DNA from: Planctomycetota bacterium
Lineage (GTDB): Bacteria > Planctomycetota > Planctomycetia > Pirellulales > Lacipirellulaceae
Assembly (NCBI GenBank): GCA_039188275.1
Contig: JBCCZD010000001.1
Location: 7,010-71,009 of the forward strand
Length of the DNA stretch: 64,000 nt
Direction: 5' to 3'
Below the pieces are notes generated by a model. That model was not told where the DNA came from. It searched no databases and worked only from the letters and a program-made list of their open reading frames with translations. Made by a program: the position numbers and the translations under genes. Positions 2,009-58,336 of the stretch are shown here, piece by piece. Each line of letters starts with the position of its first letter. Position 1 is the stretch's first letter.

Positions 2009-4728
2009 CTGAGCTCTTCGGCTTGGGCTTCGGTCAGGTCGGTCGCGGCGGCGGCGCGGCGCATCAGCTCGATCTGCACGAAGTTCAGCGGGTCGACGTA
2101 CCCGTTGCGGACCAGGATCGACCGCCGCAGCCACGGCGTTTCGTCCAGCAGCTCTTCGCACCCGACGATGGTGCAGACCGCCTCGCGGGTGCGGTCGTAC
2201 TCCTCGCGCAGCAGTTGGGCGATCTCCGTCGCGGCGGCCGGGTCGTCGGACTGGTCGATCGCCTGCGTCGCGTACCGGCGGAAGACGCGCATGTTGCTCT
2301 TGGCCATCGCGAGGGTCGAGTTATCGATAGTCGCCCGGAAGAAAGGCCAGTTCTCGTACATGTCGGCCAGCAGGTCCGTGGCGTTGTCGGCCTGGGCCCG
2401 GAACCGCTCGACCGCGGCGCCGACGCCGTACCACGCGGGCAGCAGCGCCCGGCACTGCGTCCAGGAGAAGACCCAAGGGATGGCCCGCAGGTCTTCGATG
2501 CGGTCCCCCTTCTTCCGCTTGGCGGGGCGGGAGCCGATCCGCAGGCCCTCGATGCCGGCGATCGGCGTGGCGGTGCGGAAGAACGGGACGAAGCCCGCGT
2601 GGTCGACCAGCTCGCGGTAACCGGCCAACGCCAGCTCGGACATCTGCTGGATCGCGGCGGCCCAATCGGGGTTCAGCTCGCCCGGCTGCGCGGCCCGCGT
2701 AGTGAGCACGCTCCAGACGACCTGCTCCAGGTGGCGGTGCGCGATCCGCGGGTCGTCGTACCGCTCGGCGAGCACCTCGCCCTGCTCGGTGAGGCGCAGC
2801 GAACCGTCGAAGGCCTCGGTCGGCAGCGACTGGATCGCCCGCGCCGCGGGACCGCCGCCACGGCCCAGCGAGCCGCCCCGGCCATGGAAAAAAGTGAGGT
2901 CGACGCCCCGCTCGGCGGCCGCCTTGCTGAGCTCGATCTGGGCGCCCTGCAGCGACCACGCGGCCGCCAGGTAGCCGCCGTCTTTGGTGCTGTCGGAGTA
3001 GCCGATCATGACGATCTGCCGGTCGCCCAGCTCCGCGACGTGCTCGCGGTAAACGGGGATGTCGAGCGTCGTGGTGAGGATGTCGGTCGCGGCGGTCAGG
3101 TCGCCGATCGTCTCGAACAGCGGCGCCACCGGCAGGTGGGCGGTCGCGTCGTGCTCGTCGCGGCCGACGCTCGACACGCCGCCCGTCCGCTCGGACCACT
3201 TCCACAACCACAGCACGGTGAGCAGGTCGCTCGGGGCGGCGGTCATGCTGATCACGTGGCAGCCGAGCACCTCCATCCCAAACCGCCGCGCGACCCGCCG
3301 GAGGACGCGGAACAGGTCGAGCGTCTTGCGGGCGTCTTCGGAGAGGTCGACCGGCGACAAGTTCGCGGCGATCGGCATCGTCCGCAGCAGCATCGCCTGC
3401 CGGGCGGCCTCGTCCAGCGGCGGGTCGCCCGCCTTGGTGAACTGCGTCGCGAGCCAAATCTCGTCCATCACCGCCCGGTAAACGCCCGAGTGCTGGCGGA
3501 CGTCGAGCCGCGCCGTGCACAGCCCGAACGCCGCGACCTGGTCGAGCCACGGCTGCACCTCCGCGGCCACCAGGTCGGCATTGCCCGTCGCGGCCAGCGT
3601 GTCGGCGAGCAGCTGCACGTCGCCCCGCAGTTGGCAGAACGAGCCGTAGTCGCCCGGCAGCGGCGCGTCGTCCAGCCCCGTCGCGGCGGTCTGCGCCAGC
3701 CGCCACTCGATGATCTTCAGCCAACGCCGGTAGCCCTCGTGCGGGGCGAGCCGCTCGAGCATCGCGGCCGTCTCGGGCCACTCGCCCACGGCGCGGTCGA
3801 CCGCGTCCAGCATCGCCCCGCCGCTGCCGGCCCGCTCGGTCGCCAGGCTCAGCGACTCGAATAACCGCTGGCACGCCTCGGCGTGCGCCGACAGCGCCGA
3901 CCGGCGGAGCCACATGATCGTCTCCTCGGTCGTCTCCGGCAGCACGTAAGGGTGGCCGTCCCGGTCCCCCCCCATCCACGAGCCAAACCGCAGCACCCGC
4001 GGCGCCGCGACCCCGGCGCCCGGGAAGTACTCGTCGATCGCGTCCCGCAGCTCTCGCAGCACCCGCGGCACGGTGCGCCACAGCACCGGCTGGATCGACA
4101 GCCCGCGGCGGACCTCCTCCATCACCGTCGGCGGGTGGGGACGCACCAGGTCGGTCTGCCACATCTTGACGATCTCGCCCCGCAGGCGCTGCTCGGCGAG
4201 CGCCTTCTCGGCGGGCAGCAGCCCCTCTTCGTCGACGGTGGAGAGCAGCCCGCGGATCGCCCGCAGCTTCGAGCGGAGCGACTTGCGCTTCGCCTCGGTC
4301 GGGTGCGCGGTGAAGACCAGCTCGATGTCGACCGCCGCCACCGCCTCGGCCAGCTGCTCGGCCGACAGCCCCCGCGCCGCGAGCTCTTGCAGCCCCGCGC
4401 GGATCGACTCCCGGCGGGGCTCCGGCGCGTGCTCCAGCTCCCGGCTACGCAGCGCGCGGACCCGCTGCCGGTCTTCGGCCAGGTTGGCCAGCTCCAAAAA
4501 GCCGGTGAACGCCTTGATGACCACCAGCAGGTCGTCGCCGCCCAGGTCCTTGAGCAGCGCCGCCAGCCGGTCGCCCGCGGCGTCGTCCCCGTCGCGGAAC
4601 TGCCGGGCCAGGCCGCGGACCTCCTCGACCAGGTTGAACGCGTCGCCCCCCGCGAACCGGTGGAGCACGTCGCCAAACAGCCGGCCCAGGTGCGCAATCT
4701 CTCGGCGGAGCGGTTCGGTATCGGCCAT
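1951..4728 (-). CDS. ppc: phosphoenolpyruvate carboxylase
   Basis: PEPC signatures TAHPTEAKRKS, VMIGYSDSTKDGGY and FHGRGGSLGRGGGP, plus the C-terminal GMRTTG. Start set at ATG 4728 (MADTEPLRREIAHLG), not the ORF-track extension to 5229. Confidence 0.95.
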   Translation of the reverse strand: MADTEPLRREIAHLGRLFGDVLHRFAGGDAFNLVEEVRGLARQFRDGDDAAGDRLAALLKDLGGDDLLVVIKAFTGFLELANLAEDRQRVRALRSRELEHAPEPRRESIRAGLQELAARGLSAEQLAEAVAAVDIELVFTAHPTEAKRKSLRSKLRAIRGLLSTVDEEGLLPAEKALAEQRLRGEIVKMWQTDLVRPHPPTVMEEVRRGLSIQPVLWRTVPRVLRELRDAIDEYFPGAGVAAPRVLRFGSWMGGDRDGHPYVLPETTEETIMWLRRSALSAHAEACQRLFESLSLATERAGSGGAMLDAVDRAVGEWPETAAMLERLAPHEGYRRWLKIIEWRLAQTAATGLDDAPLPGDYGSFCQLRGDVQLLADTLAATGNADLVAAEVQPWLDQVAAFGLCTARLDVRQHSGVYRAVMDEIWLATQFTKAGDPPLDEAARQAMLLRTMPIAANLSPVDLSEDARKTLDLFRVLRRVARRFGMEVLGCHVISMTAAPSDLLTVLWLWKWSERTGGVSSVGRDEHDATAHLPVAPLFETIGDLTAATDILTTTLDIPVYREHVAELGDRQIVMIGYSDSTKDGGYLAAAWSLQGAQIELSKAAAERGVDLTFFHGRGGSLGRGGGPAARAIQSLPTEAFDGSLRLTEQGEVLAERYDDPRIAHRHLEQVVWSVLTTRAAQPGELNPDWAAAIQQMSELALAGYRELVDHAGFVPFFRTATPIAGIEGLRIGSRPAKRKKGDRIEDLRAIPWVFSWTQCRALLPAWYGVGAAVERFRAQADNATDLLADMYENWPFFRATIDNSTLAMAKSNMRVFRRYATQAIDQSDDPAAATEIAQLLREEYDRTREAVCTIVGCEELLDETPWLRRSILVRNGYVDPLNFVQIELMRRAAAATDLTEAQAEELSRLTQRAIKGVAAGMRTTG

Positions 4729-54271: not shown

Positions 54272-55798
54272 ATGCGTACCGAACAGTTCTTTGAGCACCA
54301 CGGCATTGTCGCCAACCCGTTCGCGGAAGAAGACGCGCAGACGGACCCCGTCTTCAAGAACCGCTGCCGTGAGAACACCTTCCACCCTGCGTGGGACAAG
54401 GTCTTTGGCGACCCCGGTGACCCGGCGACGTCGATCGTCTTCGGAGAGAAGGGCGCCGGGAAGACGGCGATGCGGTTGCAGGTCATGGGCCGCATCGCCG
54501 AGCACAACCGCGAGCACAAGCAAGACCGTTTGTGGGTTGTCGAGTACGACGACTTCAACCCGTTCCTCGACCGGTTCGCCGATCGCCTCTCCGCCCGCAA
54601 GCAGCGTGACCCCGCCAAGGTGCTTGCCGAGTGGAAGCTTTGGGACCATATGGACGCGATCCTGTCGCTCGGCGTCACCGACCTGGTCGATCACCTGCTG
54701 GCCGCAAAACACCCGACCGGCCCACCGGCCAACCGGCTGACGACCAGCGCCACCGAGAGCGACCCCGCCGCGGCGCTCGACCACGCGCAGAAGCGAGACC
54801 TGCTGCTGCTGGCCGCCTGCTACGACGATTCAACCGGGCAGCCACTAACGCAACGCTGGAACCGGCTGCGTCGCAAGCTTGCCTTCACCGGCTGGGGCAA
54901 GGCGCTCTGGCGGCCGTGGGGCGAAGCGGCCCTCGGCTTCGGCGTGACGGCGGCCGTCTCGGCGCTGATGGGGTACTTCCGAGCCTGGGGCTGGCTCGGC
55001 GGGGTTTGGCTGTACCTGATCGTCCTCGCCGCTTGGTCGCCTTGGCTCTTCAAGTGCCTGAGCCGGCACCTTGTGTCACGCCGCGTCGCCAAGAGCATCC
55101 GCGTGCTGCGCCGAGACACCGTCGCCACCCGCCGGCTGCTGATGTCGTTCACCAGTGAAGACCTCCAGAACCAGCCGCTGCCCAGCAAGCCACGCACCGA
55201 CGACCGCTACGAGCTGATGACTAAGCTGCAGGGCGTGCTGAGGTCGCTCGGCGTCACCGGCATCCTCGTGCTGGTCGACCGTGTCGACGAGCCGCACCTG
55301 ACCGGCGGCAAGGTCGAGCTGATGCGGGACTTCGCCTGGTCGATGATGGACAACAAGTTCCTCAAGCAGCCGGGCATCGGGCTCAAGCTGCTCTTGCCCG
55401 ACGAACTGATGGAGCACCTCAACCGCGAGACGCGCGACTTCCACCAGCGGGCCCGGATCGACAAGCAGAACCTCATCCCCTCGCTCGACTGGACCGGCGA
55501 GGCGCTGCTGGACCTCGCCAACGCCCGGCTCGCGGCCTGTGCCGGCGATGGCGACGTGCCTCGGCTACCCCAGATGCTTGGCGAAGGCCTCAGCGAGCAG
55601 CGGCTGCTGGATGCGTTCCGCTCTTTGCGGACCCCGCGTCACCTCTTCAAGTTCCTCTACCGGCTCATCGCCGCTCACTGCAACGCCCACACCGACACAG
55701 CGCCATCGTGGCAAATCCCGCGCGACACCTTTGAGTCGGTCTTCGCGCTCTACAGCCGCGACCAGGCGGCAGTCGACCGAGGGCTGTCAGCCGGCTAG
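54272..55798 (+). CDS. P-loop NTPase with a TM hairpin inserted in the NTPase domain (KAP-like)
   Basis: Walker A GEKGAGKT and Walker B ILVLVDRVDE are separated by about 250 aa containing two TM helices (ALGFGVTAAVSALMGYF, VWLYLIVLAAWSPWLF). The N-terminus FFEHHGIVANPF is ExeA-like. Confidence 0.7.
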   Translation: MRTEQFFEHHGIVANPFAEEDAQTDPVFKNRCRENTFHPAWDKVFGDPGDPATSIVFGEKGAGKTAMRLQVMGRIAEHNREHKQDRLWVVEYDDFNPFLDRFADRLSARKQRDPAKVLAEWKLWDHMDAILSLGVTDLVDHLLAAKHPTGPPANRLTTSATESDPAAALDHAQKRDLLLLAACYDDSTGQPLTQRWNRLRRKLAFTGWGKALWRPWGEAALGFGVTAAVSALMGYFRAWGWLGGVWLYLIVLAAWSPWLFKCLSRHLVSRRVAKSIRVLRRDTVATRRLLMSFTSEDLQNQPLPSKPRTDDRYELMTKLQGVLRSLGVTGILVLVDRVDEPHLTGGKVELMRDFAWSMMDNKFLKQPGIGLKLLLPDELMEHLNRETRDFHQRARIDKQNLIPSLDWTGEALLDLANARLAACAGDGDVPRLPQMLGEGLSEQRLLDAFRSLRTPRHLFKFLYRLIAAHCNAHTDTAPSWQIPRDTFESVFALYSRDQAAVDRGLSAG

Positions 55799-56739: not shown

Positions 56740-56767
56740 TTGACACGCGGGTAGCCGGTGGTAGGTT
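56740..56767 (+). promoter_or_regulatory. candidate sigma-70-type promoter of CCEP gene 1
   Basis: TTGACA-N16-TAGGTT. It implies a leader of about 270 nt. An imperfect inverted repeat ataaatttcg...cgaatttat at 56698-56726 lies just upstream. Confidence 0.25.
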
Positions 56768-57047
56768 GTCGCCCGAGTCAATCCTGCCTGCGTACTTTGC
56801 GGGACCGTCAGACTCGGCTTGGAAGCGACAACCGGCGTGCTCCGGCAAGGCTTGGGTAGCAAGGCTCATTGGAGTCTGAAGCCCTATCGCCTGAGGAAGC
56901 CCGGTTTCGAGCGAACCCAACCCAGCGAATCCAACCCCAAGCCCCCTCCCTACCCGCTTTTTGCTGTTCTAGCGTCCCAGATGGCCTCCGTTGGCCCATG
57001 TAAATCGACGCTGCGAATGCCGGTGACCTATTTGGAGACCAACAAGA

Positions 57048-57421
57048 TGACGTTCACGAACTTTGTGCGCGTGATGAGCGTGCTGGCCATCGTTGCGGTG
57101 CTCGCCACCGCGAATTCGGCCGACGCAGGCTTGTTCGGCTGCTTGAAGAAGAAATGCTGCGAGCCGGTTTGCTGCGAGCCCGAGCCCGTTTGTTGCGAAC
57201 CCGCTCCCGAACCATGCTGCGAGCCGGTAGTGGTTGAAGCCCCTTGCTGCGAGCCCGCGCCGGCCCCGTGCTGTGAGCCGGAGCCCGTCTGCTGCGAACC
57301 CGCCCCCGTTTGTTGCGAGCCATGCCCGCCGAAGAAGGGTTTCTTCGCTCGTTTGATGGAGAAGTGCGCTGCCCGCCGGGCCGCAAAGTGCTGCCCCTGC
57401 CCGCCGCCTTGCGGGTGCTGA
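57048..57421 (+). CDS. secreted cysteine/proline-rich CCEP-repeat protein
   Basis: Signal peptide MTFTNFVRVMSVLAIVAVLATANSADA. The mature part has 8 CCEP units and ends KCCPCPPPCGC. GGAG sits 9-12 nt before the ATG. Confidence 0.7.
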
Positions 57422-57476
57422 AAGATAGCGTTGCGGACCCGATTAGCTGAGTTATCAACTTTGACGTACACCGTGG

Positions 57477-57504
57477 GGCGTGGTCGATTCTTCGGCCGCG
57501 CCCC
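57477..57504 (+). terminator. candidate terminator after CCEP gene 1
   Basis: 11-bp stem gggcgtggtcg / cggccgcgccc (two G-U pairs) with a 6-nt loop, followed by ccgcugUUUaU. Confidence 0.35.
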
Positions 57505-57609
57505 CGCTGTTTATAGCGAGCGAAAAACGGGGTTCTACGGTTATCGGCCGAAACGCACGAGCGGGAACCGAAGCCGAAAAAACCCTTGAATTACGCATAG
57601 TGCCTTTGT

Positions 57610-57638
57610 TGACAAATCGGTGCAGCCTGCCTAGCCTC
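57610..57638 (+). promoter_or_regulatory. candidate sigma-70-type promoter of CCEP gene 2
   Basis: TTGACA-N17-TAGCCT. Same -35 hexamer and the same TAGnnT -10 pattern as upstream of gene 1. Confidence 0.25.
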
Positions 57639-57794
57639 ATACCAAACGCTGCGGGCGACTGCAGCCAGGCGGATTACAAACTCGTGCCACACGCCCGCCG
57701 TTGGCCGCTCAGCCGGCGGGCTGAGCACCCCGGATCGACGCTGCATGGCGGCATCCTTCTACGCTGAGCCACCGAACTTTGGAGAGTCCCGAGA

Positions 57795-58202
57795 ATGAAG
57801 CTTTCTGCCCCCCTGCGGATGCTGGCCATCGCCGGCTTGGCGGTCTGCCTTAGCGGAGTCGCTGCGACCGACGCCGAGGCCGGACTGTTTGAGAAGCTCA
57901 AGGCGATGTGCTGCAAAAAGAAGTGCTGCCCGCCGCCGACCTGCTGCGAGCCTGCGCCGGAGCCGTGCGGCTGTGAAGCCCCCGCGCCCACCGATTGCGG
58001 CTGCGGCGCCGCCCCGGCGACGGGCGAAGTCATTATCAGCGAACGCGTGATCGAGTCGTCGCCCGCCGACGCCCCGACCCCCGCGCCCGAGCCGCCGTCT
58101 ATGGACGATGAAGCTCCCGCCGCGCCGGACGTCGAAGCCCCGGGTGCGCCGGACGTGGAGGCGCCTAGCGCCCCGAGTGTAGAGGTTGAGGTCGAGGCCT
58201 AA
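57795..58202 (+). CDS. secreted cysteine-rich paralog with an acidic Pro/Ala tail
   Basis: Signal peptide MKLSAPLRMLAIAGLAVCLSGVAATDAEA. The mature N-terminus GLFEKLKAMCCKKKCCPPPTCCEPAPEPCGC parallels gene 1. APDVEAP-type repeats at the C-terminus. Confidence 0.7.
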   Translation: MKLSAPLRMLAIAGLAVCLSGVAATDAEAGLFEKLKAMCCKKKCCPPPTCCEPAPEPCGCEAPAPTDCGCGAAPATGEVIISERVIESSPADAPTPAPEPPSMDDEAPAAPDVEAPGAPDVEAPSAPSVEVEVEA

Positions 58203-58232
58203 GCGTCCCGCGCTGTGAGAAACGTTCCGCAA

Positions 58233-58270
58233 GCGGCCCGTCGGCATGACCGGCGGGCCGCTTTCGTCTT
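58233..58270 (+). terminator. intrinsic terminator after CCEP gene 2
   Basis: 12-bp GC stem gcggcccgtcgg / ccggcgggccgc (one mismatch) with a 5-nt loop, followed by tttcgtctt. Confidence 0.55.
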
Positions 58271-58336
58271 GCGCGGTTGCGCGTCGCCTGCTAGAAGCGG
58301 CAACCGGAAGCACTTCCCGGAGACCAACCGTCGGCC

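Follow-up and report, generated by a model that had tools for sequence, protein, structure and literature searches.

What two adjacent genes for small proteins crowded with cysteine and proline might contribute to a planctomycete cell is the question raised by this locus. The pair lies in a 64-kb window, the whole stretch of DNA that was analysed. The original prediction described two plus-strand genes for exported repeat proteins, each about a quarter Cys and a quarter Pro, with no recognisable family. We mapped the following features.

56740–56767, plus strand: TTGACA-N16-TAGGTT, a promoter-like site and putative promoter, located about 280 nt before the start codon of gene 1
56775–57046, plus strand: long 5' leader presumed for gene 1; GGAG occupies 57034–57037, nine bases before the ATG
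57047–57421, plus strand: gene 1, 124 aa
57047–57127, plus strand: gene 1 signal peptide MTFTNFVRVMSVLAIVAVLATANSADA, read from the sequence, with predicted cleavage between ADA and G
57128–57154, plus strand: gene 1 mature N-terminal basic motif GLFGCLKKK, net charge +3
57155–57322, plus strand: repeat block of gene 1, carrying eight CCEP units of the CC-E-P-x-P-x type in 56 aa; net charge -12
57323–57418, plus strand: gene 1 C-terminal part CPPKK-GFFARLMEKCAARRAAK-CCPCPPPCGC, a basic helix motif and terminal Cys cluster, net charge +6
57475–57514, plus strand: gene 1 intrinsic-terminator hairpin (hairpin 57475–57504), a 13-bp GC-rich stem followed by a T-run, z = -5.8
57609–57637, plus strand: TTGACA-N17-TAGCCT, a promoter-like site located about 160 nt before the start codon of gene 2; the motif is also present upstream of the L001 and L002 orthologues
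57781–57784, plus strand: gene 2 ribosome site GGAG
57795–58202, plus strand: gene 2, 135 aa
57795–57881, plus strand: gene 2 signal peptide MKLSAPLRMLAIAGLAVCLSGVAATDAEA, ending ATDAEA, read from the sequence
57882–58022, plus strand: gene 2 basic motif GLFEKLKAMCCKKK, then Cys/Pro part CCPPPTCCEPAPEPCGCEAPAPTDCGCGAAPAT; aligns with the head of family member P0049 (BLASTP E = 4e-9) and with alignment A3
58023–58202, plus strand: gene 2 acidic Pro/Ala/Glu-rich tail and stop codon, net charge -14, with the conserved motif GEVIISERVIESSPAD...PAPEPP
58231–58272, plus strand: gene 2 intrinsic-terminator hairpin (hairpin 58231–58263), a 14-bp stem followed by UUUCGUCUU, z = -4.0

Both frames behave as coding sequence. 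Most differences between orthologues fall at third codon positions; the window and L001, for instance, differ at 14 first, 10 second and 56 third positions. The pN/pS ratio is 0.14–0.37 for gene 1, measured on orthologues in syntenic Lacipirellulaceae-type contigs, and 0.41–0.62 for the whole of gene 2, whose tail evolves faster than gene 1. The third-position excess, the conserved GGAG, the terminators and the relatives together uphold the claim of two genuine plus-strand genes. The recurrence of TGYTGYGARCC at the DNA level was also seen: the motif occurs nine times in the window, always on the plus strand inside genes 1 and 2, against about 0.41 expected by chance, and none of 100 shuffles reaches nine. 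The eight copies in gene 1 vary only at third codon positions of the plus frame (TGC/TGT, GAG/GAA), and the gene 1 repeats are weakly tandem at the DNA level (TRF). Such weak tandem repeats indicate that the units are not a recent duplication and, combined with the purely synonymous variation, that the peptide repeat is maintained by selection.

It could be argued that this is a GC-rich low-complexity stretch in which frames, including the antisense GSQQTGSGSQ, are open by chance. The region is indeed of low complexity, antisense ORFs of 147 and 134 aa run across gene 1, and two antisense frames contain no stops at all. However, the third-position excess lies in the plus frame, with pN/pS well below 1, and the signal peptide, junction and motifs are kept over hundreds of relatives. 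The GGAG site, the promoter-like box and the terminators are conserved, and stops arise in the antisense frames of orthologues, such as L006. Relatives keep the plus frame and not the antisense GSQQ frame, and the idea that these are not genes is effectively refuted. Short Logan contigs carrying identical proteins were considered as transcript support and set aside: because they also carry neighbouring genes, they look like genome fragments rather than transcripts.

The layout suggests that each gene is transcribed independently: both are preceded by a promoter-like site and a GGAG ribosome site and followed by a terminator. Transcription is predicted to start near 56775 for gene 1 and near 57645 for gene 2. 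The pattern TTGACA-N16/17-TAGNNT occurs twice in the window, only upstream of genes 1 and 2, with 0.04 expected. At gene 1, comparison with the orthologous loci L001, L002, L006 and L037 shows TTGACA and the TA...T hexamer retained between diverging flanks, and the GGAG before the ATG is conserved in orthologues. Both terminator hairpins, one per gene as predicted, are strong relative to shuffled sequences; that of gene 1 is conserved in four loci and carries a compensatory G-C to A-U change in L002. The 5' regions show little sequence conservation beyond the promoter-proximal part. A riboswitch or structured leader in these long regions was rejected, given no Rfam match and folding z-scores of -0.3 and -0.5 against shuffles (-0.3 for the gene 1 leader). 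The gene 1 orthologues have a motif ahead of the -35 box that might have been a shared regulator site; this too was dismissed, since the window has a single copy, as chance would predict.

The start of gene 1 had been placed at 57048; the ATG is at 57047, one base earlier, and the remaining details given for this gene hold. By direct count, the mature protein has 97 aa with 24 Cys, 22 Pro and eight CCEP units and ends in KCCPCPPPCGC, all as described; it also contains 13 Glu and nine CC pairs. Its composition (25% Cys, 23% Pro, 13% Glu) agrees with the predicted quarter Cys and quarter Pro, but that of gene 2 (9% Cys, 20% Pro) does not. Mature gene 2 has 106 aa, including 10 Cys and 21 Pro, and carries three CC pairs and three CGC motifs. 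Its translation reads GLFEKLKAMCCKKKCCPPPTCCEPAPEPCGCEAPAPTDCGCG and then switches to the acidic tail after the shared part, as had been noted.

Both proteins begin with a signal-peptide-like N-terminus, in line with the original prediction: a positively charged n-region, a hydrophobic h-region of 10–15 residues and small residues at -3 and -1, where cleavage would occur. The shared mature N-terminus is evident from the sequence and from the junction pattern A.AG[LI][FL], which in all six frames of the window is found only at the two junctions of genes 1 and 2. AlphaFold models have mean pLDDT values of 63 (gene 1) and 58 (gene 2). Helices are predicted for residues 3–28 of gene 1 and 4–22 of gene 2, in the signal-peptide region of each, and for the basic helix motif of gene 1 (residues 99–114, nt 57341–57388, pLDDT 72–88). 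The gene 1 repeat block has a pLDDT of about 50 and no secondary structure. The repeat blocks of the family are non-globular series of vicinal cysteine pairs with proline spacing (CC-x-P-x-P-x). The computed tryptic digest of gene 1 yields one 60-residue peptide with 17 Cys, so standard proteomics would probably miss the protein.

The statement that the proteins belong to no recognisable family is correct for named families and falls short otherwise. No Pfam or NCBIfam model reaches its cutoff for genes 1 and 2, and the PDB profile search returned only granulin A at E = 4.4, which is chance level. Nevertheless, the proteins belong to a large unnamed family, which comprises 409 or more clusters when grouped at 50% identity. 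The gene 1 query alone gives 67 matches, down to E = 5e-32 for non-identical proteins. Representative clusters of the family number 409 at E ≤ 1e-3 and 111 at E ≤ 1e-10. All 252 matches at E ≤ 1e-5 are 'hypothetical' or unnamed, one family member bears the automatic UniProt name 'Keratin-like protein', and many genome copies have no protein accession. Full-text literature searches found no account of this GLF / CC-x-P family. Among the genome loci, 35 of 36 are labelled Planctomycetota and one 'Chitinophaga'; the scan used the single pattern [SQ]A[ED]AGLFGC and is therefore not a census. The family is known so far from Planctomycetota only, and every named organism is a member of this phylum. 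Cultured carriers include Pseudobythopirellula maris (Mal64_22950), Rhodopirellula europaea and Rubripirellula.

Within the family, genes 1 and 2 are only distant paralogues. Direct BLASTP between them is not significant, and the link runs through intermediates such as P0049. As a query, gene 2 alone retrieves only itself; its alignment with P0049 extends over head and tail. The family profile, in which gene 2 is included, scores gene 2 at 3.4e-13, and the library search recovered P0150, the gene 2 orthologue in L001. A tail motif, GE(V/T)(I/V)...E(S/A)SP(A/S)D...P.PEPP, is common to gene 2, its L001, L002 and L006 orthologues, P0025, P0042 and P0049. The gene 2 orthologue in L006 has lost its CC pairs, of which single Cys residues are left.

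Members share a layout of a signal peptide with an AxA-GLF junction, a short basic motif and a CC-x-P-x-P-x repeat block, often followed by a second basic GLFARLKAK helix and a Cys-rich C-terminus. AxA followed by G[LIFG][LF] is matched by 122 of the 191 collected relatives. In 131 members, chosen for a small-x-small junction before G, Ala is found at -3 in 95% and at -1 in 98%; the G is followed by L in 80% and F in 82%, then by K/R-rich positions. The internal GLFARLKAK motif is present in 57 of the 131, with one to three copies each. Pro stands at +2 after CC in about 70% of units and the commonest spacer has 5 residues. Many homologues keep the CC-x-P units and their spacing, a point on which the prediction could have failed; CC pairs are 3–8 residues apart, the overall spacer range is 2–9, and spacer length and repeat number vary even among orthologues. 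CCKP and CCAP variants give basic or neutral repeat blocks, and several subfamilies carry conserved non-Cys tails (LAEGEVL.SISP, GEVIIEE..SPAD..PEPP and MPPAPMADPSAS). Ten long or atypical members contain no fusion to a known domain.

The window holds no further family members; a CC-rich antisense ORF at 3852–4121 is an artefact. A lipoprotein, with LFGC as lipobox, was rejected: the Cys that gene 1 has at +5 (GLFGC) is shared by just 16% of members. The GLF motifs are best described as basic motifs, the internal copy being predicted helical. Their hydrophobic moment (0.15–0.24) is not above that of shuffled sequences, so membrane docking by an amphipathic helix is not supported. Taken jointly, genuine genes, export and membership in this family are very probable.

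In five Lacipirellulaceae-type loci, the genes are flanked alike, with a small lipoprotein-like ORF on one side and scpA on the other. Inheritance in the lineage examined is vertical, with purifying selection. ORF clustering across 39 loci revealed no partner gene conserved between lineages, only lineage-specific synteny groups, and the neighbours are housekeeping genes such as scpA, leuS, lpxC and ppc. Vertical inheritance and monocistronic units with a conserved TTGACA and terminators form the pattern of a core, probably well-expressed envelope protein, not of an accessory system.

We infer the function, since the lineages have no conserved partner gene in common and the repeat block has no fold in the AlphaFold models. 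Our best guess, with a probability of roughly 0.35–0.4, is that these are structural proteins of the envelope, cross-linked by disulfides. After export, the many cysteines would pair into intra- and interchain disulfides and perhaps bond to further proteins of the envelope as well, while the proline spacers would hold the chain extended. Gene 1 belongs to the commonest type, which is acidic; in this type, the basic motifs might attach to the acidic repeat blocks or to anionic polymers of the envelope. The outcome would be a meshwork of covalently cross-linked protein that gives the cell envelope a detergent-resistant layer, acting like mammalian keratin-associated proteins (KAPs) or the chlamydial cysteine-rich outer-membrane complex, to neither of which it would be related.

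Exported cysteine-rich proteins generally contain disulfides rather than free thiolates, and the predicted export thus favours disulfides here. A further pointer in this direction is the residue after CC, which is Glu or Asp in 54% of units and Lys in 6%, the opposite of metallothioneins, where Lys habitually stands next to Cys. Even-Cys parity was tried as a test of intramolecular disulfides and set aside: counts are even in 73 and odd in 58 of the 131 members (p = 0.22), which speaks at most against obligatory full intramolecular pairing. This spread is compatible with inter-chain bonds and does not discriminate. Against the envelope reading, no conserved neighbour points to envelope biogenesis and the contexts are lineage-dependent; CGC motifs and His-rich variants would also be expected of a metal binder. 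The charge complementarity that docking would use is not universal, as the CCKP and CCAP variants show. The loss of CC pairs in the L006 orthologue of gene 2 and the existence of the unrelated YTV-domain proteins, already accepted as cysteine-rich wall proteins of planctomycetes, count against this reading too.

The main rival, which we regard as unlikely, is an exported thiolate metal binder or buffer of metallothionein type, whose CC and CGC clusters would capture soft metals such as Cu(I), Zn and Cd, either periplasmically or on the cell surface. Cys makes up 18–25% of the mature proteins, CC and CGC are common (131 CGC motifs in the family set), aromatic residues are almost absent outside the GLF motifs, and basic segments rich in His, for instance WRRHHHR and HHHHRHH, occur in some members. 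The C-termini CGC, CGCGM and CGCN resemble motifs of fungal Cu-thioneins, the absence of a predicted fold is typical of apo-metallothioneins too, and the Cys count has no even-number bias. However, the signal peptide would deliver these proteins to an oxidising compartment, whereas known metallothioneins are cytosolic and have no signal peptide. No metallothionein model of Pfam or NCBIfam is matched, and neither metal-resistance nor metal-transport genes were found nearby in any lineage examined. Acidic residues rather than Lys follow CC in most units, and proline-rich spacers of 2–9 residues with rapidly changing repeat number do not suggest a defined cluster geometry.

A role outside the wall meshwork, as a secreted or surface structural or adhesive protein, is less probable still. 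Such a protein could be a component of a holdfast or surface coat, or a granulin-like disulfide-ladder strut that spaces envelope layers. CC pairs 3–8 residues apart are the arrangement of the granulin ladder, although the granulin A hit, the only PDB match, is at chance level; the Cys count of gene 1 is even (24), the proteins are small, charge-patterned and predicted to be exported, and the conserved non-Cys tails could dock on a partner. Against this, AlphaFold predicts neither a ladder nor a compact structure, an even-Cys preference is not family-wide, and spacer length and repeat number differ between orthologues. We consider it very unlikely that the proteins are a sacrificial thiol or redox buffer, or precursors of secreted cationic or cysteine-rich antimicrobial or signalling peptides cut at basic sites. 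The thiol content is very high, the products are small and carry a secretion signal, and K/R clusters flanking the Cys blocks are possible protease sites. But none of the lineages examined has genes for processing, immunity, transport or modification close by, the GLF motifs lack amphipathicity, and vertical inheritance at one chromosomal position under purifying selection is unlike bacteriocin or RiPP loci.

The cross-linked envelope protein that we favour can be compared with several known systems. Mammalian high-sulfur and ultrahigh-sulfur KAPs, which serve as a disulfide-cross-linked matrix, share with the GLF family CC-x-P repeats, very high Cys and Pro and no globular fold. Unlike KAPs, the GLF proteins are bacterial, carry a signal peptide and GLF/basic motifs, and have repeat units that are mostly about 7 residues long (CC + 5), against 5 or 10 in KAPs. 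Keratin_B2 and Keratin_B2_2 gave no match at E ≤ 10 for the window proteins and none at E ≤ 0.01 for 32 members. Judged from the sequences, the resemblance is one of convergent composition and not of sequence relationship.

The chlamydial protein OmcA, from the same PVC superphylum, is small and exported and has vicinal Cys pairs, and inter-protein disulfides stiffen the envelope. OmcA is a lipoprotein, whereas GLF proteins have the AxA-GLF junction and no conserved lipobox, and the CC-x-P repeats of the GLF family are found in neither OmcA nor OmcB. Pfam scans of the window proteins and 32 members detected no homology to OmcA or OmcB. Metallothioneins (SmtA/BmtA and the fungal Cu-thioneins with CGC) are alike in Cys fraction, CC/CGC motifs, few aromatics and no metal-free fold. 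GLF proteins differ in their n-h-c signal sequence with an AxA site, their Pro-/Glu-rich rather than Lys-rich spacers, and a context without metal genes. In granulin/epithelin modules, CC pairs 5–8 residues apart stack into a disulfide ladder; the GLF family has similar pairs but no predicted beta-hairpin stack.

The accepted candidates for cysteine-rich wall material in Planctomycetia are the YTV-domain proteins, which are unrelated to the GLF family and were found by proteomics (PMC12673574, PMC8567305), for which wall rigidity through disulfides has been proposed (PMC12673574, PMC8567305, PMC10632474). They and the GLF family are both cysteine-rich, apparently restricted to planctomycetes and exported, by prediction in the case of the GLF family. 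The Pfam YTV model has no match in the window proteins or in 32 members, and the tripeptide 'YTV' occurs in neither window protein. GLF proteins are much smaller and have another repeat; proteomic support in SDS-insoluble walls exists for the YTV proteins only, whereas the GLF family is known here from sequence.

The nature of the planctomycete envelope has been debated for forty years. In the 1980s, a proline- and cystine-rich, disulfide-stabilised, SDS-insoluble envelope protein was described for the Pirellula/Planctomyces group, and peptidoglycan was later reported in several planctomycete species. To our knowledge, YTV proteins are the sole protein candidates named so far for the planctomycete wall. 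The GLF family provides further candidates for a disulfide-bonded, proline- and cysteine-rich envelope protein, and fits the description from the 1980s better than any other protein examined in this analysis. That it is, instead of or alongside the YTV proteins, a major component of that SDS-insoluble Pirellula/Planctomyces material seems doubtful. It could have been overlooked, because its genes are small and often unannotated and the mature proteins yield almost no tryptic peptides within reach of standard proteomics. With no Pfam or NCBIfam model, missing accessions and an unsuitable tryptic peptide, the family has been nearly invisible to the methods used so far. The sequence definition given here would permit its annotation and supplies concrete candidates. 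If metal binding proved to be true instead, exported bacterial metallothionein-like proteins would be new too.

The window encodes two adjacent Cys/Pro-rich proteins with signal-like sequences on the plus strand, and reading the region confirms both ORFs as originally described.

Features of the gene 1/gene 2 region
54272-55798, plus strand: 508-aa ATPase-like ORF, 77-83% identical in the related loci L001, L002 and L006
55968-56552, plus strand: small lipoprotein-like ORF with N-terminus MRMLARPPIFLAVVAAIGCSGGD and lipobox AIGC
56740-56767, plus strand: promoter-like site of gene 1 (perfect TTGACA, 16-nt gap, TAGGTT)
57047-57421, plus strand: gene 1, ORF of 124 aa, its ATG one base ahead of the originally predicted start
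57609-57637, plus strand: promoter-like site of gene 2 (perfect TTGACA, 17-nt gap, TAGCCT)
57795-58202, plus strand: gene 2, ORF of 135 aa, its signal-like sequence ending ATDAEA

In gene 1, the signal-like sequence MTFTNFVRVMSVLAIVAVLATANSADA precedes a mature part of 97 aa with 24 Cys, 22 Pro and 13 Glu, which includes nine CC pairs and eight CCEP units and ends KCCPCPPPCGC. The earlier estimates (about 97 aa, eight CCEP, 24 Cys and 22 Pro) were accurate. The mature part of gene 2 (106 aa) begins with GLFEKLKAMCCKKKCCPPPTCCEPAPEPCGCEAPAPTDCGCG and continues into an acidic Pro/Ala/Glu tail. It contains 21 Pro and 10 Cys, so that the predicted Cys content of a quarter holds for gene 1 but not for gene 2. 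The motif TGYTGYGARCC occurs 9 times in the 64-kb window versus 0.41 expected, always on the plus strand and within gene 1 or gene 2, and a six-frame scan of the window for A.AG[LI][FL] matches the two signal junctions only.

Gene 1 and gene 2 are almost certainly real genes under purifying selection. The order of the 508-aa ATPase-like gene, the small lipoprotein-like ORF, gene 1, gene 2, scpA and an MBL-fold hydrolase gene is common to the window and three metagenome-assembled contigs, L001 (Lacipirellulaceae), L002 and L006. Codon alignments of the four orthologues show an excess of third-position differences; between the window and L001, gene 1 differs at 14, 10 and 56 sites of codon positions 1, 2 and 3. 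The alignments are protein-guided, which introduces a slight bias, but the excess is nevertheless large. In the same alignments, the pN/pS ratio lies between 0.14 and 0.37 in gene 1 and between 0.41 and 0.62 in gene 2. The original prediction named an opposite-strand frame (GSQQTGSGSQ) as the alternative. Stops appear in the antisense frames of some orthologues, which together with the third-position excess favours the plus frame; the antisense frames are open solely through composition, and it is very improbable that the two genes are artefacts. The eight CCEP units of gene 1 differ at synonymous positions only and its DNA-level repeats are weak (Tandem Repeats Finder), indicating that the peptide repeat is old and kept by selection, with no recent DNA duplication.

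Each gene looks like an independent monocistronic unit, since each has its own promoter-like site, a GGAG 9-10 nt upstream of the ATG, and a terminator. TTGACA-N16/17-TAGNNT occurs twice in the 64-kb window (0.04 expected), once upstream of each gene and nowhere else; TTGACA alone occurs nine times on both strands. Both boxes persist in Pseudobythopirellula maris and the orthologous loci, whereas the flanking sequence diverges. The predicted terminators are borne out by strong hairpins with U-runs 3' of both genes (z = -5.8 for gene 1 and -4.0 for gene 2 versus shuffles). The orthologous loci retain the gene 1 hairpin, which in L002 carries a compensatory change. The putative transcription start sites imply 5' leaders of ~280 nt (gene 1) and ~160 nt (gene 2), which matched no Rfam family and showed no stronger folding than shuffled sequences. 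Both genes seem to have a -35 box that is unusually close to consensus, in a genome of 68% GC.

The original prediction of no recognisable family stands for the databases: a Pfam/NCBIfam scan returned nothing above cutoff for gene 1, gene 2, 32 family members or ten long or atypical members, and the YTV, keratin-B2 and metallothionein models did not match. Traces of 'PXPV repeat' and 'PARP' were sub-threshold and rejected as a composition effect. It does not stand for relatives, which are many. Gene 1 as sole query finds 67 among 5.8 billion clusters. With a profile of 32 sequences the yield is 409 representative clusters (50% identity) at E<=1e-3 and 111 at E<=1e-10; run against a collection that records source names, the profile matches 252 proteins at E<=1e-5. 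Wherever a name is assigned it is 'hypothetical protein', except for P. maris Mal64_22950, a 'Keratin-like protein' (UniProt automatic). Several members from NCBI genomes (P0015, P0045, P0027, P0041, P0036, P0055) are entered there with neither a protein accession nor a name, which suggests that family genes are often unannotated in deposited genomes.

The organisms named in the protein searches are all planctomycetes (Rubripirellula, Neorhodopirellula, Pseudobythopirellula, strain K23_9, Pirellula MAGs). Scanning genomes for one pattern, [SQ]A[ED]AGLFGC, which is no census of phyletic range, gave 36 loci, with labels including Lacipirellulaceae, Rhodopirellula, Aporhodopirellula, Rubripirellula, Neorhodopirellula, Planctomycetaceae and Fuerstiella. 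A small number of MAGs bear the label Candidatus Kuenenia (L009, L016, L033, L034) or Chitinophaga (L027). These labels or the binning are probably wrong, because in the four that were compared (L009, L016, L027 and L033) the proteins differ hardly at all from those of L010, L012, L019, L026, L028 and L035, labelled Planctomycetaceae/Planctomycetota.

Family architecture was assessed in 131 members chosen for a small-x-small|G junction. Ala occupies -3 in 95% and -1 in 98%, and the G is followed by L (80%), F (82%) and K/R-rich positions; there is hardly any doubt that gene 1 and gene 2 carry a signal peptide with the conserved AxA|G junction. Across the set there are 1,049 CC pairs and 743 single Cys, and the commonest spacer length is 5 (range 2-9; EPAPV and EPEPV are commonest). 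Many homologues preserve the CC spacing, as the original prediction required. CC is directly followed by Glu (47%), Ala (25%), Asp (7%) or Lys (6%), with Pro at +2 in about 70%. CGCE(A/V)APS units stand in for CC-x-P units in some members. In 57 of the 131, a further basic motif (the second, third or fourth; consensus K-K-R-C-G-L-F-A-R-L-K-A-K-x-A-A-K) is followed by another Cys block, and these proteins often end in CGC, CGCN, CGCGM or CCG. Repeat number varies: gene 1 orthologues have 9 (window), 15 (L001), 13 (L002) and 10 (L006) CC pairs, and P0015 (100 aa) and the Rhodopirellula europaea 6C copy (134 aa) are close relatives that differ in it. The genome of Neorhodopirellula pilleata has two or more subtypes, encoded at different loci. 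Non-Cys tails differ by subfamily, gene 2 belonging to one with GEVIIEE...SPAD..P.PEPP. Three further Cys-free subfamily tails, listed below, have the look of short motifs for docking or sorting; none of them matched a known family.

Subfamily tails and their members
CCAS..LP.LAEGEVL.SISP: P0011, P0013, P0016, P0022, P0041, P0045, P0055, P0056, P0061, P0066
AAPMPPAPMADPSAS...R.V.R: P0072, P0073, P0106, P0144, P0159
EGY.LAPGETLVPGSV: P0037, P0096, P0180

Gene 2 as sole query matches only itself, and its direct alignment with gene 1 is not significant. Judged from their sequences, the two genes are distant paralogues, because P0049, itself a gene 1 match, is matched by gene 2 over head and tail (E = 4e-9) and the family profile recovers P0150, the L001 orthologue of gene 2. 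L001, L002 and L006 all keep the two genes in tandem; in P. maris, scpA is preceded by a gene 1-type copy only. In the L006 orthologue of gene 2 (3652-4500), the CC pairs have decayed to single Cys (CNPQPSCMPQPVCNAQPVC), while the signal peptide, AGLF junction, DCGC motif and ESSPSD tail motif are kept. Cys pairs seem to be less constrained in the lineage of gene 2.

ORF clustering across 39 loci gave lineage-specific synteny groups only. The neighbours are housekeeping genes: scpA in Lacipirellulaceae; leuS in the Rhodopirellula group; skp, lpxC, lpxA and ppc on the P0015 contig; and haem/cytochrome genes on the P0058 contig. The 508-aa ORF has no Pfam match and only sub-threshold NCBIfam hits (P-loop ATPase Sll1717 family, 55 bits versus cutoff 75; 'DS41_1 anti-phage protein', 81 versus 370). 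The small lipoprotein-like ORF, which matches no Pfam or NCBIfam family, lies directly upstream of gene 1 in 5/5 Lacipirellulaceae-type loci, including P. maris.

AlphaFold, with the family alignment as input, models gene 1 at mean pLDDT 63, with the signal-peptide helix, a helix at 99-114 (FFARLMEKCAARRAAK, pLDDT 72-88) and a repeat block without secondary structure (pLDDT about 50). For gene 2 (mean 58), nothing is predicted beyond the signal helix and a short helix at LFEKLKA. A PDB search found no relative; granulin A (E = 4.4) is at chance level. The charge of gene 1 is sharply segregated (+3, then -12, then +6). The GLF motifs are basic; that they are amphipathic was considered and rejected, as their hydrophobic moment does not exceed that of shuffled sequences. 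Mature Cys counts show no even-number bias (73 even versus 58 odd, p = 0.22). Tryptic digestion of mature gene 1 would give one 60-residue peptide with 17 Cys and fragments of <=10 residues. Standard bottom-up proteomics typically needs at least two peptides of at least 7 residues (PMC8567305), so it would probably not report the gene 1 product.

For the function of the family we tentatively favour a structural role in a disulfide-cross-linked envelope, at a probability of about 0.35-0.4. Exported cysteine-rich proteins are normally oxidised, and the gene organisation is that expected of a small core envelope protein with its own transcription unit. With its extended, Pro-rich chain of varying length, the repeat block resembles a matrix protein and not a defined metal site, and the residue after the Cys pairs is acidic, not Lys; both features argue for cross-linking and against metal binding. 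Metal binding, with which CGC motifs and His-rich variants would be compatible too, is unlikely. Neighbours at the 39 loci offer no pointers to metal handling, redox, peptide modification or secretion machinery, which speaks against metal binding; a redox or peptide role is improbable. Another structural or surface role is rather unlikely too, somewhat more so than metal binding. The cross-linked envelope role has a further ground in literature of 1986 (see also PMC2754498). It is weakened because the unrelated YTV-domain proteins are already accepted wall proteins of planctomycetes, with proteomic evidence (PMC12673574, PMC8567305, PMC5287468, PMC10632474).

In its action the family would come closest to keratin-associated proteins, which share the CC-x-P motif, to the YTV proteins and to chlamydial OmcA/OmcB; its sequence places it in none of these groups. 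A search of one full-text collection found no publication describing it. We classify it as a previously undescribed family of extreme composition among cysteine-rich exported envelope proteins, and the evidence leaves little doubt that it is new, modular and vertically inherited, and apparently restricted to planctomycetes.
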